Origin: Nitrospinota bacterium
GTDB lineage: Bacteria; Nitrospinota_A; UBA7883; JACRGQ01
DNA: 50,156 nt
Reading direction: 5' to 3'
Assembly: GCA_016194375.1 (NCBI GenBank)
Contig: JACQBU010000026.1
Span: 1 to 50,156, forward strand
Shown here: in pieces, positions 1,365-15,322 of the stretch
Position numbering within the stretch: the stretch's first letter is position 1
How the letters are laid out: the number at the start of each line of letters is the position of its first letter
Position numbers and translations under genes: made by a program
Notes under the pieces: generated by a model
What the model saw: only the letters and a program-made list of their open reading frames with translations
The model's database searches: none
What the model was told of the DNA's origin: nothing

Positions 1365-3320
1365 ATGATGGACAAGCATCAAAATGTTCCGTGGCTGGAG
1401 CGGTCGGCCGAGAAAATTATTGACGCCGCCCTGCCGGGCGACGGGCGTCTTTTGCTTTTCGGCGAGACCGGCTCCGGCAAGTCAACCCTCGCGCTTGAAC
1501 TGGAGCGCGCCATGCGCGGCAAGGGAAGAACCCCCTTTTTACTAAGCGCTGACCCGGGTTCGCCTTCCTTCGGCCTTCCGGGCGCGGTCACCCTCGCCCG
1601 GCGCCGCGGCGACATATGGACCGTCGCCGGGATGGAGGCGTTGTGCAGTCTGGACGCCGCCCGCTTCCGCATGCCTCTGGTTTCGGCGGTCGGCAGGCTC
1701 ACTCGCAAGGCCGCCTCCGCCCCCTTGATACTCGACGCGCCCGGCGTCGTTCGCGGCGTGGCCGGGGCGGAGCTTCTGCTCGGCCTTGCGGAGACTGCGG
1801 ACGTCGACGTCGTGCTATTGCTTGTCCGCAAAGGTGAACCGCCGCCGCTGTCGAACGAACTAAGGTCAATTTCCCAAAAACTGTTTTTTGTGGAGGCGGC
1901 GGCGGAGGCGCACAGCCCGACAAGACGGTTGCGCGAGAGAAGCCGCACCAAACTTTGGGACGAGTATCTGGCGGACGCGCAAGAGCGAACCTTTGACCTT
2001 GGGAGCATAAACCTTCTGGGCACTCCGCCCCCTTTGGACGTAAAAGAGGCGTGGCCGGGCCGGCAGGCGGCTCTGCTGGACGACCGGCAGAACACCGTCG
2101 CGTTTGCCGAGGTGTCGGCGTTGGGGAACGGGTACATAAAGGTCAGAACGCCGCCGTCGCAAAAGGAGTTTTTCGCGTTGCTCGTCCGCGACGCGCAACG
2201 CGACAGCCGGGGGTTCCTAAGCACGGCAAGGCTGTTGGAAAAAGAGGCCGTGAGGTACGCGCCCCCGCCCGACATGTGCTCACCGCCGGAGTACGCGCAC
2301 GTGACGGGGCCGCGCCCGGTGGGGCACGTCGGCGCCGCCACCGCCACGCTGGTAAACGGCGTTTTTGGCGACCCGTTGTTGCACCTGAGAATGCGGAGGG
2401 AAAAGCGGAGCATTCTTGTCGACCTGGGGGAGGCCGGGCGGCTTCCGGCGCGGATAGCGCACCAGGTGTCCGACGTGTTCATCAGCCACGCGCACATAGA
2501 CCACGTCGGGGGGTTCGTCTGGTTGCTCCGTTCGCGCATCGGCTATTTGCCGACCTGCCGTGTCTTCGGCCCCCCGGGGCTTGGGGAAAACATCCTCGGG
2601 ATGGTCCGCGGGATTCTTTGGGACCGCATCGGCGACCGCGGGCCGAGCTTCGAGGTTTCGGAACTGCGCGGCGACCGCCTTCTGACGCGGATGATAGAAG
2701 CGGGAAGGGACGAAGCCGGGCCGGTGGTCGAACGGCAGATAAAGAACGGCGTCCTCGTGGAAGAAAAAGATTTTCTGGTGCGCGCGGCGACGCTCGACCA
2801 TCGCACGCCGGTGCTGGCCTTCGCGTTCGAGTCGGCGATGAAGATAAACGTGCGCAAGGAGGCGCTGGAGCGTAAGGGTTGGGCGCCGGGGCCATGGCTG
2901 GGGGAGTTGAAAAACCGCGTTTACGACGACGACCGGGAGGCGGTGATCACCACGCCGGACGGCGGCAGGGAGAAGGCGGGCAGGCTGGCCGACGAGTTTT
3001 TGCTTATATCCCCCGGGGAAAAACTCGCGTACGCGGTGGACTTTGGAAACACGCCGGAAAACCGCAGGCGGGTGGAGGGGCTTGCCAAGTCCGCCCACAC
3101 CTTCTTTTGCGAGGCGGCGTTCGCGGAGGCGGACGGCGACATGGCGGAAAAATACCGGCACATGACAGCGCGCGGATGCGGCGAGATTGCGACCGCCGCG
3201 GGGGTCGGGCGGCTAATCCCCTTCCACCACTCCAAAAGGTATGAAAAGGAGCCGGAACAAATCTATAAGGAGATTCGCGCGGTGTGTTCAAGGGTGGCCG
3301 TGCCGAAGTTCCCGGGATGA
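1365..3320 (+). CDS. Fusion protein: Clp1/Grc3-like P-loop polynucleotide kinase domain + RNase Z-like metallo-beta-lactamase domain
   Basis: 651-aa ORF. The N-terminus has Walker A LLLFGETGSGKSTLALEL, then SADPGSPSFGLPGAV and LILDAPGVVRG (Clp1_P-like layout). The C-terminal half has the MBL motif ISHAHIDHVGG plus later His/Asp ligands (LDHRTP, IPFHHS). Confidence 0.8.
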   Translation: MMDKHQNVPWLERSAEKIIDAALPGDGRLLLFGETGSGKSTLALELERAMRGKGRTPFLLSADPGSPSFGLPGAVTLARRRGDIWTVAGMEALCSLDAARFRMPLVSAVGRLTRKAASAPLILDAPGVVRGVAGAELLLGLAETADVDVVLLLVRKGEPPPLSNELRSISQKLFFVEAAAEAHSPTRRLRERSRTKLWDEYLADAQERTFDLGSINLLGTPPPLDVKEAWPGRQAALLDDRQNTVAFAEVSALGNGYIKVRTPPSQKEFFALLVRDAQRDSRGFLSTARLLEKEAVRYAPPPDMCSPPEYAHVTGPRPVGHVGAATATLVNGVFGDPLLHLRMRREKRSILVDLGEAGRLPARIAHQVSDVFISHAHIDHVGGFVWLLRSRIGYLPTCRVFGPPGLGENILGMVRGILWDRIGDRGPSFEVSELRGDRLLTRMIEAGRDEAGPVVERQIKNGVLVEEKDFLVRAATLDHRTPVLAFAFESAMKINVRKEALERKGWAPGPWLGELKNRVYDDDREAVITTPDGGREKAGRLADEFLLISPGEKLAYAVDFGNTPENRRRVEGLAKSAHTFFCEAAFAEADGDMAEKYRHMTARGCGEIATAAGVGRLIPFHHSKRYEKEPEQIYKEIRAVCSRVAVPKFPG

Positions 3321-5570
3321 TGACCTTGGAATCATCACGGCGGCGGCGAGGTAAAGAAGGGACGCCGCCAACAGCGCGCCGCTAAAGCCGGCAAAATACG
3401 CCAGCAACGGGGCCGAGGCCGCCCCGACCACGGAGGCGAACCCGTTGGCCGCCATGCACCAGGGGACGGAGGGGTTCGACCGTTCGCCAATCTCGCGAAG
3501 CGCGAGAGGATAGGGGACGCCCATGGAAAATCCGCAAACCGAGACGATTGAAAGGAAAATTAATCCGTCGCTTATCGCCGACCGGGTGGTCGCGTATCCC
3601 CAGTATTTGAGGCAGACGGCGGCAAGGCCGACCAATCCGGCGACAGCCGCCGGAACAAAAAATCCAGTCTTCAACCTTTTGCTAAAAAGCCCGCCAAGCG
3701 CCGACGTGCCAAGGAGGACCGGTATGACGAGTGCGGCGGCGTTCACGGCCCCGCCCAGGTAGAGTATCCCCTTCTGTATAAAAGCCACCTCCACCATCAT
3801 GAAGCCGGCGCCTAGCATCAGGAAGTAAAACAGGTCGCCGAATGGCGTCGCCTTTCCATTACGCCCCCTTGCCGCCAGCGGCAGGACGAGCAAAACGAGC
3901 GAGAACAACCCCGCCTGAAACAGGATGACGACGTCCATTCCGCCGCCGGTTAGGACCGGCAACCACCTCCCTTCCAGCGCGCGCACCGTTTCGGGAAGTT
4001 TTGAAATGCGGACGTAGTTCTCGAAAAATGGCGAATCCACGGAGGCGGGGGACGTGTTGAAAAGCGCTTCCTCACGGGAGCGTAATTTACGCACCGCGTC
4101 GTAATAGACCGGCTCCTTAAATATGTTGTGTCGGTTTGTGTCTTCTTTTCGCAAGCCCGGATAGTAAACGGGGTCCAGCGAGAGTTCGTCCGCTATCGAC
4201 GCCAGGTTTTTAACGTCGCTTCCCGCGAAGCCCCCCTTTTTATAGACCACGTGAAACGTTCCCCAGGATCGGAAAGCCGCCGTGTTTTGCCATCCCGATG
4301 GCTCCATTTCGGCGATGAGGCGCAAAAGGCGGGTTTCGCCCCGTGGCGGCGGAAGAAGCGGGACGGAGGCGGCGAGAATCCCCCCGTCGTTTAACTTCTC
4401 GAGGCAAAGCCTCATGAACTGCGTGGTGAGAAGGTAGTTCTCCGACAGCACGCTCGTGCCGACGCCCTCGCCTACGGAGACGACGGGGACGGAGATGAGG
4501 TCGTATGCGCCGGAGGAGCCGTAGAGGTGGAGCCTCGGGTTCCCGCCCGTCAGTTCATAGCGCCCCTTGCCGCTCTTCTCTATGGCTTTTACGAGAATTT
4601 TTTTCTCCTCAAGAATTTTTACGGAGCCCGCCCCGAGGCGGACGGCGGCCTCCGCCTCGGTGATTCCGTTCGCGCCGATTATCAGCGTTTTTCCCGGCCT
4701 TTGAAACCGGTAGGGCAGGGTCGAGGGGAGGTGGAGCAGGTAATCGGACGGCTTGTGTGGAAGAACGGCGTAAAGTCCGCCGTTGAAGAATATCCCCGTG
4801 CCGGTCGGAACGGCCTCCCCGAAGGCGGGGTCGAGGCCGGGGGCGTGCCGCAGGTAGGGGGAGGCGACCGTATCCACCCTCCCCTCGGGGCCCCGGATTG
4901 AATCCAATATCCTGAAATTTCCATACATCTCGTACTGGGACAGCTCCTTGTACAGCGAGATTTTGGGGGCGAGGAAGGGAGACGTCAGAAGCATCACCGC
5001 AACTCCAAGCGCGGCCTTCCACTTTATCGAGGCAGTCCGCCCAAGCAGGACTGACGCCGCGACCGCCGAAAGCGCGCACAGGAGCGTCGGAAGGTTCTTA
5101 TAGTGGGAGGCGAAGAGCCACAAGGCCCCTCCCGCCGCCGCGCCCGCCATGTCCGCAAAATAAACCTTCCACGCGAAGGCCGAATGTTTTTTCATTATTC
5201 CGGTGAGCACGAGCGACGACAGGAAAAAGGGGACGCCAAAGAGCGGGTAATACGCGAAAAGGCGGAGGAGTTCCCATACGTCCCATTCAAGCCTTACGGG
5301 GTCGAACGACACGAAGCCGGACAGGGCCGTGGTCGCCGGGTACGAGAGACCCAAAAGGAGCGCCCCGTGCTCCCATTTTATTTTTTCCAAAAACGCTGGG
5401 AAGAGGCTGAGAAGAACCCCGGCGAAGCCGAGGCCGAGCATGGCGGTCGAGACGACCAGCGATGCAAAGTGGTGCCCGGTGGTGAGGACGAACCTCGAAG
5501 CGAGGTCAATCTCGAAGAGAAGCGTGGAAAGCGTCGTCAGGAAGATTCCGGCGAGCGTTTTCCCGCTCAC
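3288..5570 (-). CDS. Polytopic membrane protein with an embedded spermidine-synthase-like (class I methyltransferase-fold) domain
   Basis: 760-aa ORF with many hydrophobic helices at both ends. The central soluble region (…KTLIIGANGITEAEAAVRLGAGSVKILEEKK…, …YDLISVPV…) has the fused membrane/spermidine-synthase architecture. It is convergent with the upstream gene and overlaps it by 33 nt. Confidence 0.7.
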   Translation of the reverse strand: MSGKTLAGIFLTTLSTLLFEIDLASRFVLTTGHHFASLVVSTAMLGLGFAGVLLSLFPAFLEKIKWEHGALLLGLSYPATTALSGFVSFDPVRLEWDVWELLRLFAYYPLFGVPFFLSSLVLTGIMKKHSAFAWKVYFADMAGAAAGGALWLFASHYKNLPTLLCALSAVAASVLLGRTASIKWKAALGVAVMLLTSPFLAPKISLYKELSQYEMYGNFRILDSIRGPEGRVDTVASPYLRHAPGLDPAFGEAVPTGTGIFFNGGLYAVLPHKPSDYLLHLPSTLPYRFQRPGKTLIIGANGITEAEAAVRLGAGSVKILEEKKILVKAIEKSGKGRYELTGGNPRLHLYGSSGAYDLISVPVVSVGEGVGTSVLSENYLLTTQFMRLCLEKLNDGGILAASVPLLPPPRGETRLLRLIAEMEPSGWQNTAAFRSWGTFHVVYKKGGFAGSDVKNLASIADELSLDPVYYPGLRKEDTNRHNIFKEPVYYDAVRKLRSREEALFNTSPASVDSPFFENYVRISKLPETVRALEGRWLPVLTGGGMDVVILFQAGLFSLVLLVLPLAARGRNGKATPFGDLFYFLMLGAGFMMVEVAFIQKGILYLGGAVNAAALVIPVLLGTSALGGLFSKRLKTGFFVPAAVAGLVGLAAVCLKYWGYATTRSAISDGLIFLSIVSVCGFSMGVPYPLALREIGERSNPSVPWCMAANGFASVVGAASAPLLAYFAGFSGALLAASLLYLAAAVMIPRSSSRELRHGHP

Positions 5571-6377: not shown

Positions 6378-7151
6378 GTGGCAAACAAGGACGCTCCCGC
6401 ATCCGCCCCCGGCCTGGCCGTGGTGATACTCGCCGCAGGGCGGGGCAAGCGCATGAAATCCGACCTGCCCAAGGTGCTCCACCCGCTCGGCGGCAGGACG
6501 CTCGTCGAGCGCGTGGTCGACGTCGCGCGTGAAATCTCCCCGGACAAAATCGTCGTCGTCGTCGGCCACAAGGGGGGCATGGTGAGGGAGGCGCTGGGCG
6601 GGGCCAGCGTAATCTTCGCCGAACAAGAGGAGCAGTGGGGCACGGCCCACGCCGTCTCGACGGCCTTGGAGTCCCTGCGCGGGTTTGCCGGAAAAATCGT
6701 GGTGTTGTCCGGCGACGTTCCGCTTATGGACTCCTCCACCCTGCGGGCGCTCGTAAAACTGCGTGACGACGAAGGCTCCGGCGTGGCGCTCGTCACGGCG
6801 GACGCGGAAAATCCCTTCGGATACGGAAGGATAATACGGTCGCCGGACGGGCGTGTGGAGGCGGTCGTGGAGGAGCGGGACGCCACCGAGGCGCAGAAGG
6901 CGGTCCGTGAGATTAACGCCGGGACTTACGTTTTCGAGTCCGGATTCCTGCGCCGGGCCCTCGCACAGATAAAACCGGACAACGACCAGGAGGAGTACTA
7001 CCTTACCGACGTCGTCAAGATTGCGCTGGCGGAATGGGTGCGGGTTTCGGCGCTCAAGGCCCCGGATTTCAGCCGCGTCATGGGCGTCAACAGGCCGGAG
7101 GAGCTCGAGGCGTTGGAAGCCCTGCATCACAAAACCGGAAAGGCGAATTAG
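6378..7151 (+). CDS. glmU: UDP-N-acetylglucosamine pyrophosphorylase domain only (GlmU N-terminal domain, no LbH acetyltransferase domain)
   Basis: GTG start. VVILAAGRGKRMKSDLPKVLHPLGG is the GlmU nucleotide-binding signature. The protein ends after the helical arm (…GVNRPEELEALEALHHKTGKAN) at 257 aa, with no hexapeptide repeats. Confidence 0.8.
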   Translation: MANKDAPASAPGLAVVILAAGRGKRMKSDLPKVLHPLGGRTLVERVVDVAREISPDKIVVVVGHKGGMVREALGGASVIFAEQEEQWGTAHAVSTALESLRGFAGKIVVLSGDVPLMDSSTLRALVKLRDDEGSGVALVTADAENPFGYGRIIRSPDGRVEAVVEERDATEAQKAVREINAGTYVFESGFLRRALAQIKPDNDQEEYYLTDVVKIALAEWVRVSALKAPDFSRVMGVNRPEELEALEALHHKTGKAN

Positions 7152-7153
7152 GG

Positions 7154-8974
7154 ATGTCGGGAATAGCCGGGTACGTGGGGCACCGCAACGCGAAGGACGT
7201 CCTTCTGGACTCCCTCGCGAGGCTTGAGTACAGGGGTTACGACTCGTCCGGGCTGGCCGTCATAAGCGACGGCGAGCTTAAACTGCACCGGGTCCTGGGC
7301 CGCCCCGCCGCGCTCGCGGAGAAGCTCCGCGCGAGGCCGATACCCGGAGCCGTTGGCATCGGACACACGCGCTGGGCGTCGCACGGGAAGCCCTCCGTAA
7401 GGAACGCCCATCCTCAGGTGGCGCACTCCATCGCCGTGGCCCACAACGGGATAATCGACAACGCCGTCGCGCTAAGGGAGTCGCTCGAGGCGGGCGGCGA
7501 GAAGTTCAAGTCCGAAACGGACACCGAGGTCCTGACGCACCTCATCAACCAGCACTGGAAGGGGACGTTGTTGGAGTCCGTGCTGGCCGCGCTTCAACAC
7601 GTCGGCGGCGGGCTCACGTTTTGCGCCATATCGGCGCGCGACCCCGGCCAGCTCGTGGTGGCCCGGAAGGGGAACCCCATGGTCGTGGGGCTTGGCGAGG
7701 GGGAGTACCTCGCGGCCTCGGACGCCACGGCCATATCCCCGTACACGGACAGGATGGTGTTCCTGCAGGACGGCGAGGTCGCGCTTCTTTCGCGCGACGG
7801 GGCGCAGTTCATGGACTTTAGCGGGAGGCCCGTGGACCACAAGCCGAGGAAGATTTCGTGGAACCCGGTGATGGCGGAGAAGAGGGGATACCGCCACTTC
7901 CTGCTGAAGGAGATTGTCGAATCCCCGCGCGCGGTTAGGGACACGGTGGCCAGTTGCTTTCCCATGAAGGGCGAGCGGCTTTTGGCGGAGCAGTTCAACT
8001 TCCCCTGCAAGGGGATTGAGAAGGTGCGAAAGGTCATCTACGCCGGAAGCGGCTCGTCGTACATAGCCGCCATGCTGGGGCAATGGATTTGCGAGTCGGC
8101 GGCCGGGGTCCCGGCGGGGCGCCTGATAGCCTCCGAGCGCCAGTTCGCCCGCCGCATCATAGAGCCGAGCACGCTGTTCGTCGCCGCCTCGCAGTCGGGC
8201 GAGACGCTCGACACGCTGGAGGCCGCGAAGCTGGCCCTGCAAGGGGGCGCGCGGGTTTTGGCGGTCACGAACAACCCGTCCAGCTCGCTGGCGGGCATGG
8301 CGCACGACGTGTTCGAAATCAAGGCCGGGCCGGAGATTTCGGTCGCGTCCACGAAGACCTTCTCGGCGCTCGTCGCCGCCATGGCGCTGTTGGCGATCCA
8401 CCTAGGAAGGGGCCGGAAGACCATGCCGCCCGACGAACAGCAAAAACTGCTGGACGCGCTCGGGGCGCTCCCGGAGCAGATGGAGCTGATGGTGACGCAC
8501 GAGGCGAGGATGAGGAGGCTGGCGGAGGAGTACTCCCGCTCTCGCTCGTTCTTTTTCGTGGGGCGCGGGCTTCACTACCCGGCCACGATGTACGCGGCGC
8601 TGATGATGAAGGAGGTGGCGAACGTCCACGCCGAGGGGCTCGTCGGGGGCGAGATGAAGCACGGCACCATAAGCCTCGTGGAGAAGGGGACGCCGGTGAT
8701 GTACATGGCCAACCACGAGACGCTGATGAAGGAGGCGCTCAACGACATGGACGAGCTGATGGCGCGCGGCGCGGCGGTCATCGCGGTGGGGTCGCACGAG
8801 TTCCCGGAGACGGCGGCGCACTGCCACGAGTTCATAGCGACTCCGTCCGCGCCGGACGCGCTGGCGCCGTTGCTCGCGATTGTCCTCGCCCAGCTTTTCA
8901 TTTATTATGTCGGTTTGTACGACAAAAAGGACGTCGACCGCCCGCGAAACGTGGCGAAGAGCGTCACCGTTTAA
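7154..8974 (+). CDS. Glutamine--fructose-6-phosphate aminotransferase paralog with Ser in place of the N-terminal catalytic Cys
   Basis: The true start is the ATG at 7154, 2 nt after the glmU-like stop. The protein begins MSGIAGYVGHRN… (atg tcg gga), where GlmS has MCGI. The remaining class-II GATase residues are conserved (LEYRGYDSSG, HTRWASHG, HNGIIDN, ETDTEV). It has two SIS domains and the C-terminal …NVAKSVTV. Length is 606 aa. Confidence 0.85.
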   Translation: MSGIAGYVGHRNAKDVLLDSLARLEYRGYDSSGLAVISDGELKLHRVLGRPAALAEKLRARPIPGAVGIGHTRWASHGKPSVRNAHPQVAHSIAVAHNGIIDNAVALRESLEAGGEKFKSETDTEVLTHLINQHWKGTLLESVLAALQHVGGGLTFCAISARDPGQLVVARKGNPMVVGLGEGEYLAASDATAISPYTDRMVFLQDGEVALLSRDGAQFMDFSGRPVDHKPRKISWNPVMAEKRGYRHFLLKEIVESPRAVRDTVASCFPMKGERLLAEQFNFPCKGIEKVRKVIYAGSGSSYIAAMLGQWICESAAGVPAGRLIASERQFARRIIEPSTLFVAASQSGETLDTLEAAKLALQGGARVLAVTNNPSSSLAGMAHDVFEIKAGPEISVASTKTFSALVAAMALLAIHLGRGRKTMPPDEQQKLLDALGALPEQMELMVTHEARMRRLAEEYSRSRSFFFVGRGLHYPATMYAALMMKEVANVHAEGLVGGEMKHGTISLVEKGTPVMYMANHETLMKEALNDMDELMARGAAVIAVGSHEFPETAAHCHEFIATPSAPDALAPLLAIVLAQLFIYYVGLYDKKDVDRPRNVAKSVTV

Positions 8975-8997
8975 CCCGCTTTATTCTGGAGGTTTGT

Positions 8998-10206
8998 TTG
9001 AAGGCTTTGGTGCTTGCGGCCGGCGGCGGCATGAACATGGCCCCGTTTTTCCCGACGAGGCCGAAGTCCATGATTCACGTGGCCGGAAGGCCGGTGCTTC
9101 ACAGGACCCTCCAGATGTTGCGCGAGTCGGGATTCGGCGAAGTCTGCGTGGTAGTCGGCCCGAACGGGCGGCTGATAACGGAATTTTTCGGGGCCGGCAG
9201 GAGCGTGGACATGAAGATAAGCTACGCCACCCAGGGAAAGCGGGGCGGAATCGGCCGGGCCGTCCTCGCGGCAAAGAGCCGGTTCAAGGCGGGCGAGAAT
9301 TTCCTGCTGGCGTACTCCGACGTGGTCGCGGAGGAAAACCTGGTTTCAAGCGTGATGGAGGCCTTCCGCCTCTCCGACAAACCGGCGGCCAGCATCTGCC
9401 TGACGGACGACCCGGCGGGCTTCGGCAACGTCTATCTGGACGACGCGATGAACATCACCAGGATAATCGAGAAGCCCGGCCGCGGCGGAAAGGGGAACTA
9501 CGTTTTGGCCGGGATGTTCGTCCTCCCGTACTCCTTTTTCGGGACGCTGGAAAAAAACGGCGGCGACATGGCGAAGGCGCTGGCCGCGCTCGTCAGGGCC
9601 GAGGGGCTCAAGGGCGCCATCTGGGAGAAAGGGTGGGTGGACCTCGTGCACCCGTGGGAGGTCCTTTTGGCGAACAGGATGGTGATGGGGACGTGGCATG
9701 ACGCGGTGGTTCACGAGAGCATCAAACTGAGGGACGCCAAGATAAAGGGGCCGGTTCACATCGAGGAAAACGTGGAGATACGCTCCGGCGCGGTGATAGA
9801 AGGCCCGGCGTTCATAGGGCGCGGAAGCTACATAGGCAACAACGCGCTCATACGCAAAAACTCCTCCATTGGCGCCGGTTCGGTGGTGGGGTTCGGCGCG
9901 GAGATAAAGAACAGCGTCATTTTCGGCCGCACGAAGATAGGCAGGCTTTCCTTCATCGGCGACAGCGTGATAGGGGAGAACGTGGAGATAGGCTCCGGCA
10001 CGATGACCACGAACTACGACGTGAACGGCGCCGACATCAAGGTGAGGCTCGACAAGGCCCTGCTGGGGACGGGGATGAAAAAACTCGGCGCGTTCGCGGG
10101 GGACGGCGCCCATCTTGGCAACGGCCACAACATCGCCCCCGGCGCGGTCATCCCCCCCGGATGCGTCGTGGGGCACAACATAACGCATCCGAAAAGGGGC
10201 GTCTGA
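8998..10206 (+). CDS. Archaeal-type bifunctional sugar-1-phosphate nucleotidyltransferase / LbH acyltransferase-like protein
   Basis: TTG start at 8998, with GGAGG at 8988-8992. The upstream 305 codons of the 707-aa track ORF are an out-of-frame shadow of the previous gene. The N-terminal NTP-transferase fold begins (M)KALVLAAGGGMNMAPFFPTRPKSMIHVAG. The C-terminus has hexapeptide repeats (IGRGSYIGNNALIRKNSSIGAGSVVGFGAEIKNSVIFG…). Length is 402 aa. Confidence 0.75.
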   Translation: MKALVLAAGGGMNMAPFFPTRPKSMIHVAGRPVLHRTLQMLRESGFGEVCVVVGPNGRLITEFFGAGRSVDMKISYATQGKRGGIGRAVLAAKSRFKAGENFLLAYSDVVAEENLVSSVMEAFRLSDKPAASICLTDDPAGFGNVYLDDAMNITRIIEKPGRGGKGNYVLAGMFVLPYSFFGTLEKNGGDMAKALAALVRAEGLKGAIWEKGWVDLVHPWEVLLANRMVMGTWHDAVVHESIKLRDAKIKGPVHIEENVEIRSGAVIEGPAFIGRGSYIGNNALIRKNSSIGAGSVVGFGAEIKNSVIFGRTKIGRLSFIGDSVIGENVEIGSGTMTTNYDVNGADIKVRLDKALLGTGMKKLGAFAGDGAHLGNGHNIAPGAVIPPGCVVGHNITHPKRGV

Positions 10207-10210
10207 CCCG

Positions 10211-12031
10211 ATGTGCGGAATAAGCGGGATAGTCTCCGGGGAGAACGTCGCCGCGAAGCTTCTTTCCAGCATACAGAACCTGGAGTACCGGGGGTACGAC
10301 TCCTGCGGGATGGCCGTGCTGAATGCACGCGGGCCGGTGGTGAGGAAAAACGTCGGCCACGTGGCGGACGTGGCGGAGAAGGAGCTTTTTCTTTCCCTCG
10401 AGGGCGTCACCGGAATAGCCCACACGAGGTGGGCCACCCACGGGGGCGTGACGCCGGCGAACGCCCACCCGCACCTTAGTTGCGACAAAACCCTCGCGAT
10501 CGTCCACAACGGCATAATCTCAAACTACGCGAGGCTCAAGGCCGCGCTGATAAAAAGGCGGCACAAGTTCGCCTCCGAAACCGACTCCGAGGTCATCGCG
10601 CACCTCGTGGAGGAAAACAGGAAAAAAGGGGCGCCGCTAGAGCGGGCGTTCACGTCGGCGCTGAAGGACCTGGAGGGGTCGTTCGCCGTGGCCATGGTCT
10701 CCATCGAGGCGCCGCACAGGATTTATTGCGGCAAGCACGAAAGCCCGCTCATACTCGGCCTCGGGAAAAACGAATTCTACGTCGGCTCGGACTTCAACGC
10801 CTTCATAGAGCACACGAAGGACGCCGTCGTGATGGACGACGGCGAATACGCGGTGGTGTCCGACCACGGTTACGAGGTCAAAAGGATTCGCGACGGCAAA
10901 CCCGTGCGCAAGACGATAATGAGGATAGACTGGGACTCCGAGGCGTCGCGCAAGGGGGGATTCCCCCACTACATGCTCAAGGAGATTTACGAACAGCCGG
11001 AAACAGTCCGAAAGGCCCTTTCCGTAAGCGAGGATTCAATCGTCGGGCTGGCAAAAGGCCTGACGGGGGCCAAGAGGGCGTACCTAACCGGGGTGGGGAC
11101 GACGTATTACGCCGCCAAAGTCGGGCAGTATTACTTCGCGTCGGAGGCCGACCTGGGCGTTCCGGCGGCCAGCTCGGACGAGTTTTTGGAAAACTCCCCG
11201 CTGGCGAAGGACGATTTCGTCCTGGCGGTTTCCCAGTCGGGCGAGACCTACGACACGCTTCGCCTGGTGCGGGAGGCGAAAAAAAGGGGGGCGAAAACGG
11301 CGGCGGTCGTCAACGTCGTCGGCTCCACGTTGAGCAGGCTGGTGGACCAGGTCGTGTTGCAGGGCTCCGGCCCCGAGATATGCGTCATCAGCACCAAGGC
11401 CGCGCTGGCGCAGATGATAATCCTCATGCGAGTCGCGATTGAAGCCGGCCGAATGAACGGCCGCCTGACCCCCGCAGAAAAGAGGAGGAAAACGGCGCAG
11501 TTGGAGGCGCTCCCGGCCCTGATTTCGGGCTTCCTCAACGAGTATTCCGGATTGTTCCACACCATCGCGCAGAAGCACGCCTCGCGCCACAACTGGTTGT
11601 TCATGGGCCGCGGCAGGTTTTACCCCGTCGCGCTCGAGACCGCGCTCAAGGTGAAGGAGGTGGCCTATCTTCACGCCGAGGGAATGCCCGCCGGGTTTCT
11701 AAAACACGGCGCGCTCGCGCTGATAGACGACACCCTCATGTCGGCAATGTTCGTCCCCGGCGAGTCGGAGAAGGAACTGCACAGGATGACCATGGGCTCC
11801 GTGGCGGAGATAAACGCGCGCGGCGGCAGGGTGATAGGCTTCCACTTCTCCAAGTCGTTGCGCGGCTCCAAGCTGTTCGAGGACCAGGTCCTGCTTCCGT
11901 CCGCACCGCCCCTCACGAGCCCCCTGGTGGCGCTGCTGGCGGGCCAGCTCCTTTCGTACTTTTTGGCCACGGTGCTCGGGCGCGACGTGGACAAGCCGCG
12001 CTCCCTTGCGAAATCAGTAACCGTCGCCTAG
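10211..12031 (+). CDS. glmS: Glutamine--fructose-6-phosphate aminotransferase (isomerizing), canonical
   Basis: Starts MCGISGIV… with Cys1. Motifs LEYRGYDSCG, HTRWATHG, HNGIISN and two SIS domains are present. The C-terminus is …SLAKSVTVA. Length is 606 aa. Confidence 0.93.
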   Translation: MCGISGIVSGENVAAKLLSSIQNLEYRGYDSCGMAVLNARGPVVRKNVGHVADVAEKELFLSLEGVTGIAHTRWATHGGVTPANAHPHLSCDKTLAIVHNGIISNYARLKAALIKRRHKFASETDSEVIAHLVEENRKKGAPLERAFTSALKDLEGSFAVAMVSIEAPHRIYCGKHESPLILGLGKNEFYVGSDFNAFIEHTKDAVVMDDGEYAVVSDHGYEVKRIRDGKPVRKTIMRIDWDSEASRKGGFPHYMLKEIYEQPETVRKALSVSEDSIVGLAKGLTGAKRAYLTGVGTTYYAAKVGQYYFASEADLGVPAASSDEFLENSPLAKDDFVLAVSQSGETYDTLRLVREAKKRGAKTAAVVNVVGSTLSRLVDQVVLQGSGPEICVISTKAALAQMIILMRVAIEAGRMNGRLTPAEKRRKTAQLEALPALISGFLNEYSGLFHTIAQKHASRHNWLFMGRGRFYPVALETALKVKEVAYLHAEGMPAGFLKHGALALIDDTLMSAMFVPGESEKELHRMTMGSVAEINARGGRVIGFHFSKSLRGSKLFEDQVLLPSAPPLTSPLVALLAGQLLSYFLATVLGRDVDKPRSLAKSVTVA

Positions 12032-12112
12032 CCGGCGGGGGCAGGGTTGTAGTTGAACCCTTTTGCGCCGGATGAAGCGCGGAGGAAAAAATGAAACAAA
12101 TGGCCGCAAAAA

Positions 12113-14032
12113 ATGACCGGGCCTGAAAACCGCCCCGCCCGGCCGCGCCCCAGCCGGTTGCAGGGGACCGACGGCGTGAGGGGGCCGGTTCGCCCGGCCC
12201 GGGACTTCCCGGACGGGCCGGTGGAAACCTTCCTCGGACGCGGGGTGTTGACGGAGGAGTTTTTCGAGCTTTACTGCTACGCGCACGTTCGCGGTCTCGT
12301 CGAGGATGGAAAAATGGCCGAGGGGGACGACGTCCTCATAGGGTGGGATTCGAGGGACGTGGAGAAAACTTACGTCAACGCCGCCGTGTCGGGAATCGCC
12401 AAGGCGGGGGGAAGGCCCGCGCTTTTGGGGGTTCTTCCAACGCCGGGCGCGGCCATATCGCTCGTCTGTCTCGAGGCGCCGACGGCGATAGTGATAACGG
12501 CGTCGCACAACCCGAGCGACCAGAACGGGATAAAAATATTCACGGGGCCGCTCGGCATGAAGTTTTTGCCGGAGGACGACGAAAGGCTCACGGAAAGGGT
12601 CTATTCCGTGGATTTCGAGAAGATACGGAACGCGGAGAAAAAATTCTTCCCGTTCGACGCCTCCAGGGAGGAGCGTGCGAGGTTCATACATTTTCACCTT
12701 GACGGGCGCAACAGCTGGGCGGAGGGGAACGAGAGGGTCTTCTCGGGTTCCGAGATAATAGTCGACCCCGCCCGCGGCGCGCTGGCCCAAATCGCCGCCA
12801 TGGTTTTTTCGGAGCTCGGGTTCGGGATGGTCGAGGAGGTCGCGGGCGAGCAAAACGGCGACGTGAACAAGGACTCCGGAGTGGCGCACATAGAGGGGAC
12901 GAGGGAGATAACGGCCGCCGCCTTCGACTCCGGCTCCGGCCTCGCGCGCCACGAGCTGGTGAAAAAGATGTTCGAGGAGGGGCGCGCCGCCGCGAGGAAA
13001 AACGACCCGGCGCAAAGGCCGCTTTTCGGCGTCTCGTTCGACGCGGACGGAGACAGGTTCTTCCTGCTCCTTTACGACGCGAAAAACGACTCCGTGCGGA
13101 TACTTTCCGGCGACGACTGCCTCGCGCTTCAATCCTCGTATCTCATGGCGGCGGAGCCGGAAAAGTGGAGGGGGCGGACGATGGCGTTCACGGTCGAAAG
13201 CGACGTGAACCTTCTCAGGCACGCGACGTCGCTCGGGTTCAAGCCGGTCGTCACGGCGGTGGGGGACAAGTGGATATTAAAAAAGGCGGAGGAATGCGGC
13301 GAATCCTTCGGCGTCGGCGGCGAGGAGGCCGGACACAGCATAAGCGAGGGGGTGACGACGATAAAATGCAGGGAGGAAAAGCGTCTCTTCGCGGGCAACG
13401 GCCTGAAAGGGGCGATAAACACGATTTTGGCCCTGCATAAGCTGGCCGGCGGGGGGGGCGTCATGGAAGCGGCCAGAAACCCGTTCGAGGCGGGGTTCCG
13501 CCACACCGCCTATGCGTATTACGTGAACAAGGGGCTTTTTCACAGGGGGAGCCACGCGTGGAAGGGCGCGGAGAAGACGTTGAGGGAGATTTTTAGCGGG
13601 CGGGACAAACACCGGCTTTCGCTCGAGGCGGAGGAAATAGAGGGGGAGCCGGACATGTTGTATTTCGCCATAACGTCGTGGGACGAGGGGCGGGTCGGCT
13701 CCATATTCGTCCGAAATTCCGGCACGGAGGACAAGATAAGCGCGAACGCCCGAGGCGCGAAGAAGATGGCGGGGTTGCTCAAAACCGCGTGCGACGCGGT
13801 TATAATCCGGCTCATGGAACAAATGACAGACGCGGCCAACCCCATGGCGGTTGCGCGGCTCAAACTGCTCAAACAAATCTCAAAAAAAATAACGCCCGTC
13901 GCCGGGGCCTTTCCCGGCGTTGATTTCGAGCGCCTGACGCACGAGACGGAGGTGAAACAACAATTGATGACCCGGCGCGGGGGGGAATTCGTTCTCACGC
14001 CGCTGGGGGAGGCTCTGCTTGAAAAATTTTGA
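12113..14032 (+). CDS. Alpha-D-phosphohexomutase family protein (phosphoglucosamine / phospho-N-acetylglucosamine mutase-like), unusually long
   Basis: Motifs found: LQGTDGVRG, active-site loop VITASHNPSDQNGIKIF, metal loop SFDADGDRFF, sugar loop GGEEAGHSI, phosphate loop VRNSGTEDKI. At 639 aa it is well above typical GlmM length. The start is uncertain (see finding at 12081-12126). Confidence 0.8.
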   Translation: MTGPENRPARPRPSRLQGTDGVRGPVRPARDFPDGPVETFLGRGVLTEEFFELYCYAHVRGLVEDGKMAEGDDVLIGWDSRDVEKTYVNAAVSGIAKAGGRPALLGVLPTPGAAISLVCLEAPTAIVITASHNPSDQNGIKIFTGPLGMKFLPEDDERLTERVYSVDFEKIRNAEKKFFPFDASREERARFIHFHLDGRNSWAEGNERVFSGSEIIVDPARGALAQIAAMVFSELGFGMVEEVAGEQNGDVNKDSGVAHIEGTREITAAAFDSGSGLARHELVKKMFEEGRAAARKNDPAQRPLFGVSFDADGDRFFLLLYDAKNDSVRILSGDDCLALQSSYLMAAEPEKWRGRTMAFTVESDVNLLRHATSLGFKPVVTAVGDKWILKKAEECGESFGVGGEEAGHSISEGVTTIKCREEKRLFAGNGLKGAINTILALHKLAGGGGVMEAARNPFEAGFRHTAYAYYVNKGLFHRGSHAWKGAEKTLREIFSGRDKHRLSLEAEEIEGEPDMLYFAITSWDEGRVGSIFVRNSGTEDKISANARGAKKMAGLLKTACDAVIIRLMEQMTDAANPMAVARLKLLKQISKKITPVAGAFPGVDFERLTHETEVKQQLMTRRGGEFVLTPLGEALLEKF

Positions 14033-14771
14033 CGTCGCCGGATTTTTTCCCGAGATGGAAAACTTCGCCCACAAACGGCTGTTCGCCGGGGTCGCGCGCC
14101 CGTGGGACGTACTGCCAAAAATAAACGACTACATCTCGGATTTTGTCGGAAAAAACGCGCGGTCAAAACTTCCCGCCGGGCTTCGCCTGCTAAAGGGCGG
14201 GAGCCCCGCCCTGTACTGCGAAGCGCCCGTCACCCTCAAGGAAGACCTCGTGTGCCGCCCCGTCGCCGTGTTCAGAGGCAAGGGGACGACGATCGAGCCG
14301 TCCGCGCTGATAAAACGGTTCGCCCTCGTCGGCGAGGGTTGCGAGATAAGGCAGGGCGCCTACCTGCGCGGCGGGGTGATTGCCGGGGAAAAATGCACGC
14401 TGGGGCACGCCACCGAAATAAAGAACTCGATTTTGATGAACCATGCCGAGGCGGGGCATTTCAACTACGTCGGCGACTGCGTCGTCGGCTCCTACGTCAA
14501 CCTCGGGGCGGGGTCGAAGCTGGCGAACCTGAAGTTCAGAAGCGCGGCCGAAAAGAAGAACGGATTTTTCCCGGAAATATCCTTCCTCAGCGAAAAGAGC
14601 GTGGTCAAAACCGGCCTGTCGAAATTCGGGGCGATTTTGGGGGATTACTGCGAGGTCGGGTGCAACGCCGTCCTGTCCCCGGCGAGCATTTTGTACCCCG
14701 ACTGCAGGGTTTTCCCGAACTTCACGGTCAGCTCCGGCGTTTATAAAAATGGGAGTTACCTCCGCCCCTGA
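14019..14771 (+). CDS. Stand-alone left-handed beta-helix acetyltransferase resembling the GlmU C-terminal domain
   Basis: Hexapeptide repeats …VGEGCEIRQGAYLRGGVIAGEKCTLGHATEIKNSILMNHAEAGHFNYVGDCVVGSYVNLGAGSKLANLKF…FGAILGDYCEVGCNAVLSPASIL parallel the GlmU acetyltransferase core. The TTG start at 14019 overlaps the mutase by 14 nt; the ATG at 14055 is an alternative. Confidence 0.7.
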   Translation: MKNFDVAGFFPEMENFAHKRLFAGVARPWDVLPKINDYISDFVGKNARSKLPAGLRLLKGGSPALYCEAPVTLKEDLVCRPVAVFRGKGTTIEPSALIKRFALVGEGCEIRQGAYLRGGVIAGEKCTLGHATEIKNSILMNHAEAGHFNYVGDCVVGSYVNLGAGSKLANLKFRSAAEKKNGFFPEISFLSEKSVVKTGLSKFGAILGDYCEVGCNAVLSPASILYPDCRVFPNFTVSSGVYKNGSYLRP

Positions 14772-14845: not shown

Positions 14846-15247
14846 ATGGCGAAATTCACTCTAGGCAAACAGGGGTCAAAACGAAAGCCAGCCGGGGTAA
14901 GGGGTAAAGGCGAAATCAAGCCTGATGCTGAAATATCTGCCAAATTGCGGGCCGAGGTTTTGGCCCGCAACGATTTTACTTGCCAGATGTGCGGCATTAG
15001 CAAGGAAGAGATTAACCCATACACAGGGCATGTAGTTAGGTTTCGCATCGGGTTCGTCAAGGGTAAGAACTTAGGCGGGACAGCCAAACTTTCCAACCTC
15101 CGCGCCCTTTGCTCCACTTGTTACCGTGGCGCGAGGCACATCACGGAGAAAAAGCCAAGCCTGATCTGGCTTCTATCTCAAATCAGACGAGCCTACCCTG
15201 ACGACCAACGCGTAGCATACGATTGGCTATGCAAGAAATTCGGCTGA
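14846..15247 (+). CDS. Small HNH/zinc-ribbon-like protein with atypical catalytic positions
   Basis: 133-aa ORF in a low-GC islet. RAEVLARNDFTCQMCG…LGGTAKLSNLRALCSTCYRGARH follows the HNH CxxC…N…CxxC scaffold. The usual D-H dyad position reads RIGFV. Confidence 0.55.
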   Translation: MAKFTLGKQGSKRKPAGVRGKGEIKPDAEISAKLRAEVLARNDFTCQMCGISKEEINPYTGHVVRFRIGFVKGKNLGGTAKLSNLRALCSTCYRGARHITEKKPSLIWLLSQIRRAYPDDQRVAYDWLCKKFG

Positions 15248-15322
15248 AAGCGTGAAAGCGTGCGGAATGATGGGAAAAGTATTCCGTCATTTTTGGCCGA
15301 ATTTGGTTAGGGAGAACTTATT

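Follow-up and report, generated by a model that had tools for sequence, protein, structure and literature searches.

A six-gene hexosamine cluster on a groundwater Nitrospinota contig

We analysed a 50,156-nucleotide (nt) stretch of DNA (the window), which is contig JACQBU010000026.1 of a 1.9-Mb, 94%-complete metagenome-assembled genome (MAG) from a groundwater Nitrospinota bacterium (assembly GCA_016194375.1), and focused on six adjacent genes, here called g1 to g6, whose products belong to families of hexosamine-nucleotide synthesis. The window has a GC content of ~62%, and the best matches to its DNA were groundwater metagenomes. All six open reading frames were found on the plus strand at the coordinates given in an earlier note made from the sequence alone, and the junctions described there were confirmed, with gaps of 2, 23, 4 and 81 nt from g1 to g5 and a 14-nt overlap between g5 and g6.

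The family assignments made by profile search scored far beyond chance. By a partial match to TIGR01173, g1 (6378-7151, 257 residues) is a predicted stand-alone GlmU N-terminal domain, that is, a GlcNAc-1-P uridylyltransferase. It is followed by g2 (7154-8974, 606 residues), a full-length GlmS paralog (TIGR01135) with Ser replacing the Cys1 nucleophile, and by g3 (8998-10206, 402 residues), an ST0452/Arch_glmU-type protein (TIGR03992) that joins a nucleotidyltransferase to an LbH domain and has both catalytic signatures replaced. The second GlmS, g4 (10211-12031, 606 residues; TIGR01135), is of the canonical Cys1 type. Four catalytic loops, an AlphaFold model and Foldseek comparison mark g5 (12113-14032, 639 residues) as a phosphohexomutase and candidate GlmM, and g6 (14019-14771, 250 residues; TIGR03992/TIGR03991), which overlaps the g5 stop by 14 nt, is a predicted stand-alone LbH acetyltransferase.

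Gene order is kept within the family and in part across the phylum

To place the cluster among its relatives, regions around the g5 ortholog were taken from 20 related genomes and the six window proteins were mapped onto them. The order g1-g2-g3-g4-g5-g6, whose conservation the earlier note had proposed to check, was present in every genome of the same family with a long enough contig, whereas other families of the class carried g1-g3-g4-g5-g6, without g2. A scan of species-representative genomes placed the six-gene form only in the source's own family and found five-gene or partial forms elsewhere in Nitrospinota; in many marine Nitrospina only g5 and g6 are still adjacent. Even in genomes with a split cluster, g1 stays next to g3, g3 next to GlmS and g5 next to g6. 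The g5-g6 pair is adjacent in MAGs of Nitrospinota, 'Tectomicrobia' and Planctomycetota, and one 'Tectomicrobia' MAG holds the run g3-g4-g5-g6. Genes of the g3 type abut a GlmS gene in every opened context that extends past the gene, bar one archaeal contig in which GlmS lies ~1.8 kb upstream.

The genes flanking the operon were not conserved among the related genomes. Order kept across the whole family, with a core kept across the phylum, supports the reading of the six genes as a single operon, and the same conservation bears out the expectation that the divergent paralogs are maintained rather than decaying; the reading frames of g2 and g3 are intact in all orthologs. These two genes are not co-inherited, g2 being confined to one family and g3 found phylum-wide. 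g2 is a later, family-specific addition.

The cluster as the probable UDP-GlcNAc route of Nitrospinota

UDP-N-acetylglucosamine (UDP-GlcNAc) is a precursor essential for peptidoglycan and lipid A, and its synthesis is a drug-target pathway. Since the source genome encodes LpxA, it needs UDP-GlcNAc. A profile search with TIGR01173 found no full-length GlmU in this 94%-complete genome, and a GlmU or GlmM above the curated cut-off was found in none of the 32 Nitrospinota genomes searched. All but two of the 32 carried an N-only GlmU, and g3 orthologs and the long mutase g5 were nearly universal among them; another search detected g5 in every Nitrospinota genome that it covered. Four outgroup bacteria had canonical GlmU and GlmM and lacked g3.

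Within the source genome, the other nucleotidyltransferase match is RmlA, and the other phosphohexomutase is of the PgmG type rather than GlmM and lies on another contig. The earlier statement that the mutase occurs once thus holds for the operon but not for the genome. Because no canonical GlmU or GlmM was found elsewhere in the genome, g1, g4, g5 and g6 would be needed for an ordinary UDP-GlcNAc route, and the result across the 32 genomes makes the cluster most likely the housekeeping route to this precursor, and apparently the sole one in the cell.

A predicted split GlmU and a long mutase

A bifunctional GlmU has both domains in one polypeptide, and the TIGR01173 model carries a cut-off of 366.85 bits. 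g1 matched only positions 2-237 of the 452 in this model, with 268.7 bits, and with this partial coverage and low score it does not qualify as a bifunctional GlmU. Its residues 15-248 align to residues 5-237 of Streptococcus pneumoniae GlmU (1g95/1hm0; 190 bits). An alignment of 14 orthologs shows no variation in the motif LAAG(K/R)G(T/K)RMKSDLPKVLH or in the rest of the pocket residues, so that g1 has the uridylyltransferase signature LAAGxGTRM...PK.

The acetyltransferase counterpart, g6, consists of the LbH domain only, matching TIGR03992 at positions 249-393 (116.5 bits) and TIGR03991 at positions 136-339. In alignment to ST0452 of Sulfolobus tokodaii it covers the LbH domain but lacks most of the nucleotidyltransferase domain, and it keeps the residues equivalent to His308, Tyr311 and Asn331. 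The surrounding motif, AGHFxYxGD...NLGAGxKLANL, is conserved in an alignment of 19 full-length orthologs. As g6 starts just before a conserved P-W-D motif that closes the nucleotidyltransferase domain of g3 and ST0452, it appears to be a shortened paralog of this archaeal-type protein.

Compared with bacterial GlmU (E. coli and S. pneumoniae), the likeness lies in the uridylyltransferase domain and motif of g1 and in the His/Tyr/Asn acetyltransferase motif of g6. The two activities differ from that enzyme in being placed on separate genes ~7 kb apart, and the half with the acetyltransferase motif belongs to the archaeal or 'alternative' type (TIGR03992/TIGR03991), not to the C-domain of bacterial GlmU; no fused GlmU was found in the Nitrospinota genomes searched. 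When the domains of E. coli GlmU were dissected, each was reportedly active on its own.

For g5, profiles recognised phosphohexomutase domains I to III, and the AlphaFold model (mean predicted local distance difference test score of 90) shows a four-domain fold. All 12 orthologs compared share the loops TASHN, FDxDGDR, GxEExGH and RNSGTE(D/N)K without change, which gives g5 the phosphoserine, metal, sugar and phosphate loops on a predicted four-domain scaffold. The best Foldseek matches were bacterial GlmM structures (7ojr, 3pdk and 6gyz) at 18-25% identity, followed by PMM/PGM. g5 has its four domains, all four catalytic loops and its closest structural likeness in common with bacterial GlmM (B. 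subtilis 7ojr, B. anthracis 3pdk) and PMM/PGM. Its scores fall far under the GlmM cut-offs (126.4 bits for TIGR01455, cut-off 447; 108.6 bits for TIGR03990, cut-off 439), and unlike bacterial GlmM it is ~190 residues longer. The extra length comes from insertions and from an add-on of ~60 residues (~575-639) that follows the four phosphohexomutase domains at the C-terminus; the add-on is formed by two helices, a beta hairpin and a helix, and is conserved in orthologs. The overlap between g5 and g6 is conserved across related genomes and therefore suggests that mutase and acetyltransferase are translationally coupled.

g3 is a conserved ST0452-type paralog with altered active sites

g3 has the two-domain architecture of ST0452 (2ggo/5z09) and of MJ1101-type archaeal GlmU (TIGR03992), and aligns end to end with ST0452 (2ggo; 174 bits, residues 1-385). 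Its score against TIGR03992 (Arch_glmU), 284.4 bits, lies under the curated cut-off of 292.1. Relative to ST0452, Arg13 is replaced by Asn, Thr80 by Ile, His308 by Arg and Tyr311 by Phe, while the equivalents of Asn331, Tyr97, Asp99, Lys147 and Asp208 are kept; 15 orthologs have the same residue states. We take Arg13, His308, Tyr311 and Asn331 to be catalytic in ST0452, with the residue roles of GlmU serving for comparison.

The substitutions recur in a larger set of sequences. Among 121 close members of the g3 family, Arg13 survives in 3; Thr80 has given way to Ile in 120, His308 to Arg in 119 and Tyr311 to Phe in 117, with Asn331 kept; the Arg13 position is occupied by N, D, S or T in ~120 relatives. 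Across 136 diverse representatives of 50% clusters, 33 lack Arg13 and 32 of these also lack His308, whereas 90 of the 103 with Arg13 keep His308, counts that are descriptive only because the sequences are related. One archaeal relative of g3 (L135:8001-9200, JGI 3300026531) has the LbH site I-H-R-L-S-Y, with His one position before Arg. Altered variants of the LbH site, as read from such sequences, occur in archaea too.

Despite the altered sites, g3 is the most conserved non-GlmS gene of the cluster, with a mean column identity of 67% compared with 59% for g1, 56% for g6 and 51% for g5 in the same genomes. Public annotation at JGI and NCBI names its family a bifunctional UDP-GlcNAc pyrophosphorylase/GlcN-1-P acetyltransferase. 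The residue states indicate that g3 most likely catalyses neither GlmU reaction any longer. The earlier count, in which aminotransferase, uridylyltransferase and acetyltransferase each occurred twice, therefore stands at the level of domain homology but not at that of catalytic residues.

Pfam LbH_EIF2B and GMPPB_C both match g3, and the combination of nucleotidyltransferase and LbH fold is found also in GMPPA and in eIF2B gamma/epsilon. GMPPA is described as a paralog without catalytic activity of its own, which binds GDP-mannose and controls GMPPB (PMC11228364). The likeness is that of a catalytically altered paralog retained next to an active one, its pocket potentially still able to take up the nucleotide sugar. 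g3 shares this pattern, in that catalytic residues are lost while the fold and the majority of sugar- and nucleotide-pocket residues are kept under strong constraint. It differs from GMPPA in that its putative catalytic partners, g1 and g6, are single-domain proteins and in being closer in sequence to ST0452. By this analogy, g3 probably serves as a partner protein that binds a ligand, whether as a scaffold or as a sensor of UDP-GlcNAc or of a hexosamine phosphate. A complex prediction of g3 with g1 scored 0.00 and carries no weight either way.

The two GlmS proteins differ in their nucleophile

Both GlmS proteins matched TIGR01135 over its full length (g2, 617.8 bits; g4, 613.1 bits; cut-off 418), and, as in canonical E. 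coli GlmS (1jxa/2j6h/4amv), both contain two SIS domains and the residues K485, E488, H504 and K603. The roles of Cys1, the glutamine pocket and the isomerase site are here taken to be those of the E. coli enzyme. In g4, which is present in both the five-gene and the six-gene clusters, these four residues align with those of the E. coli enzyme, the glutamine-pocket residues are present as well, and the N-terminus reads M-C-G-I in 18 of 18 orthologs, supplying the Cys1 nucleophile that g2 lacks.

The N-terminus of g2 reads M-S-G-I. Ser1 was found in 10 of 10 genome orthologs, encoded by TCG, TCC, TCA or AGC, and 26 of the 27 database clusters that form the g2 clade, at an identity of at least 54%, have it too; outside the clade identity falls to 45%, and all those matches have Cys1. 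The lone Cys1 member (P0025) nests inside the g2 clade and lies directly upstream of a g3 ortholog on its own contig. The Ser codon at 7157-7159 was reproduced without differences in independent contigs from two samples of the same groundwater study. A sequencing error behind Ser1 was thus ruled out by the orthologs, the several Ser codons and the independent contigs.

Apart from residue 1, the glutaminase site of g2 is kept: R26, R73, W74, H77, N98, G99 and D123 of the glutamine pocket are invariant in the clade. So are the isomerase residues K485, H504 and K603, with E488 present in 25 of 28 sequences. Mean pairwise identities of the glutaminase and isomerase domains are similar (0.68 and 0.64 in g2; 0.705 and 0.68 in g4), indicating that the glutaminase domain of g2 is as constrained as its isomerase domain. 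The intact pocket argues that g2 still binds glutamine.

A quick tree placed the g2 clade beside ordinary bacterial GlmS and apart from the g4 clade, on a stem of 1.24 changes per site. Identity to those bacterial enzymes is 44% for g2 and 38% for g4, and E. coli GlmS is nearer to g2 than to g4 (415 against 361 bits). What sets g2 apart from canonical GlmS is Ser1, the missing last residue of the C-tail and the long stem branch. Its sequence features identify g2 as a functional protein with a changed nucleophile rather than a pseudogene or a Sulfolobus-type isomerase with SIS domains only. Its candidate roles are those of an amidotransferase that is slow or uses Ser as nucleophile, of a synthase that takes ammonia, of a deaminase, or of a subunit that regulates g4.

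A sister genome of the same genus (JACQEX010000093; L021:10880-12700, minus strand) has a Cys1 GlmS that lacks ~21 codons, corresponding to g4 residues 160-180, with a frame change. The Ser1 paralog is intact there. The deletion may be an artefact of assembly; otherwise it is a natural knock-out, which would show the Ser1 enzyme to be sufficient.

Proposed pathway and alternative explanations

We consider it probable, with moderate confidence, that the cluster is a housekeeping UDP-GlcNAc operon built of non-canonical parts, in which g2 and g3 do not form a redundant second set. Built on gene content, conservation, residue states and the failure to find a canonical GlmU or GlmM, the proposal assigns putative biochemical activities and a regulatory role as follows. 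The Cys1 GlmS, g4, would produce GlcN-6-P, which the long GlmM-like mutase g5 would convert to GlcN-1-P. The stand-alone LbH protein g6, with its His, Tyr and Asn kept, would acetylate GlcN-1-P, and the stand-alone GlmU N-domain g1, with its canonical Arg/Lys motif, would then add UMP to give UDP-GlcNAc. g3 would act as a non-catalytic sensor or scaffold, in the manner of GMPPA for GMPPB, and g2 as a thiol-independent or slow glutamine amidotransferase, or as an ammonia-using or regulatory GlmS.

Several points weigh against this proposal. g5 falls well short of the cut-offs for the GlmM family, and the mutase step could instead be carried out by the PgmG-type enzyme. In 39 of the 121 g3 relatives, none of them in the source's family, an Arg stands one position earlier in the N-terminal motif, and the invariant Arg that has taken the place of His might point to new chemistry rather than to ligand binding alone. 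Some LbH N-acetyltransferases, such as QdtC, work without a His base, so the change from His to Arg is no proof that g3 is inactive. Ser serves as the N-terminal nucleophile (Ntn) in other hydrolases, and g2 may simply be an active GlmS.

The earlier note had read the duplicated functions as two parallel pathways, one making UDP-GlcNAc and the other, consisting of g2 and g3 with the shared mutase, making another nucleotide amino-sugar, for example UDP-GalNAc as in S. tokodaii. We regard this as unlikely. The non-conserved or decaying copies that the note had named as a sign against its idea were not what we found: g2 and g3 are conserved. Moreover, the closest solved relative of g3 is ST0452, which acts on several sugar-1-phosphates, and the intact isomerase site of g2 could in principle take another ketose phosphate. 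However, g3 lacks Arg13, Thr80, His308 and Tyr311, the separate inheritance of g2 in one family and of g3 across the phylum does not fit a single module, and without g1, g4, g5 and g6 no canonical UDP-GlcNAc route would remain. Nor does the cluster hold a second mutase or an epimerase. The Sulfolobus route itself uses the GlcN-6-P/GalN-6-P epimerase ST2245, an SIS-only protein resembling the GlmS isomerase, then a mutase and ST0452. Its combination of an SIS-only epimerase with an active ST0452-type enzyme was not found here, ST2245 being compared by description only; g2 is a full-length GlmS and g3 is without the ST0452 catalytic residues. Neither the division into two complete sets nor the GalNAc analogy is supported by these results.

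Two other arrangements of the same enzymes seem to us a little more doubtful still. If g3 were a true bifunctional GlmU that tolerates the motif changes, g1 and g6 would be accessory or act on other substrates. Such a role would agree with the public annotation of the family as bifunctional, with the retention of Q79, Y106, D108, K159, D215 and the N331-equivalent residue, and with a score near the Arch_glmU cut-off (284 versus 292), but key catalytic changes at both active sites co-vary across the subfamily, and g1 and g6, which have complete canonical catalytic sets, are equally universal. In an order like that of eukaryotes, judged about as improbable, g6 would acetylate GlcN-6-P and g5 would be a phospho-N-acetylglucosamine mutase, after which g1 would uridylylate GlcNAc-1-P. 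The unusual length of g5 and its poor scores against GlmM models would suit this order, and the conserved overlapping g5-g6 pair is compatible with either. Yet the structures nearest to g5 are bacterial GlmM and PMM/PGM, its sugar loop GxEExGH is close to the bacterial GlmM/PMM loops, and g6 retains the ST0452/GlmU residues for acetylation of a sugar-1-phosphate. It is hardly credible that g2 and g3 are decaying duplicates without function, an idea that could draw on altered catalytic residues at three active sites but is already contradicted by the conservation data: intact frames in all orthologs, 67% mean column identity of g3, an invariant glutamine pocket in g2 with domains as constrained as those of g4, and Ser1 kept through synonymous changes in both codon families.

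The proposed housekeeping operon would count as a variant of the known UDP-GlcNAc pathway. An entire phylum, comprising nitrite oxidisers and their relatives in groundwater, seems to make UDP-GlcNAc by means of a GlmU divided between two genes and a highly divergent mutase, and public annotation gives the GlmU role to g3, the one protein without the catalytic residues. If g3 is indeed a sensor or scaffold, it would represent a new mode of control of bacterial hexosamine flux and a clear case of a bacterial metabolic pseudoenzyme. To our knowledge, the accepted view is that GlmS-type amidotransferases need the Cys1 thiol and that GlmS is unable to use ammonia; use of Ser1 by g2 would overturn the former, and use of ammonia would contradict the latter. 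A literature search of limited coverage returned nothing on a split GlmU in Nitrospinota, on a doubly substituted ST0452-type subfamily or on a natural Ser1 GlmS.

A further-reaching reading, which we hold to be possible though rather doubtful, makes g3 the founder of a widespread group of mis-annotated, 'dead' GlmU/ST0452 proteins that sense UDP-GlcNAc or a hexosamine phosphate and control GlmS, the split GlmU or both. Such proteins would be the bacterial equivalent of GMPPA and would offer a means of control other than the glmS ribozyme, GlmY/Z and GlmR. The same reading takes g2 as a natural Ser-nucleophile class-II (Ntn) amidotransferase.

Start regions, RNA searches and surroundings of the operon

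The start codon of g3 is TTG, with GGAGG 5 nt upstream. At g5, no obvious ribosome-binding site precedes the start at 12113. Reading the sequence upstream revealed a strong GGAGG followed by an 11-codon mini-ORF (12081-12126, plus strand) that starts at 12091, crosses an A6 tract and is out of frame with g5. The A6 tract and its surroundings in the g5 start region were identical in independent contigs from the same groundwater study, which ruled out a homopolymer error in the assembly.

Neither a glmS ribozyme nor any other RNA family turned up when the window was scanned against Rfam, a tRNA search of the window found none, and predicted promoters and terminators were no more frequent than background, which makes them uninformative. 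Apparent joints seen when reads were mapped to the window have short anchors, whose shorter side spans 21-34 letters with 90% likeness, and were not taken for rearrangements; we attribute them to contigs that carry other GlmS genes of these metagenomes.

Directly after the operon lie two genes for HNH-type nucleases of 133 and 253 residues (14846-16084, plus strand), with a GC content of ~51% against ~62%. They had no match in the regions taken from related genomes, and given this and the lower GC content the stretch is probably a small inserted islet. Upstream of the operon, a 651-residue open reading frame (1365-3320, plus strand) combines a Clp1-type P-loop domain and a metallo-beta-lactamase fold in one frame, and a 760-residue frame (3288-5570, minus strand) has a hydrophobic N-terminus and no Pfam match.

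Farther downstream, a gene for an hgcA-like corrinoid protein (16622-17338, minus strand; Pfam CdhD match) encodes 238 residues, compared with open frames of 290-415 residues in its orthologs, and may be truncated or frameshifted. Genes of this kind are patchy, occurring in 4 of 13 genomes of the family and in several other Nitrospinota families. A tie between the Ser1 GlmS and mercury methylation was rejected on this distribution and on the lack of conservation of the operon flanks.

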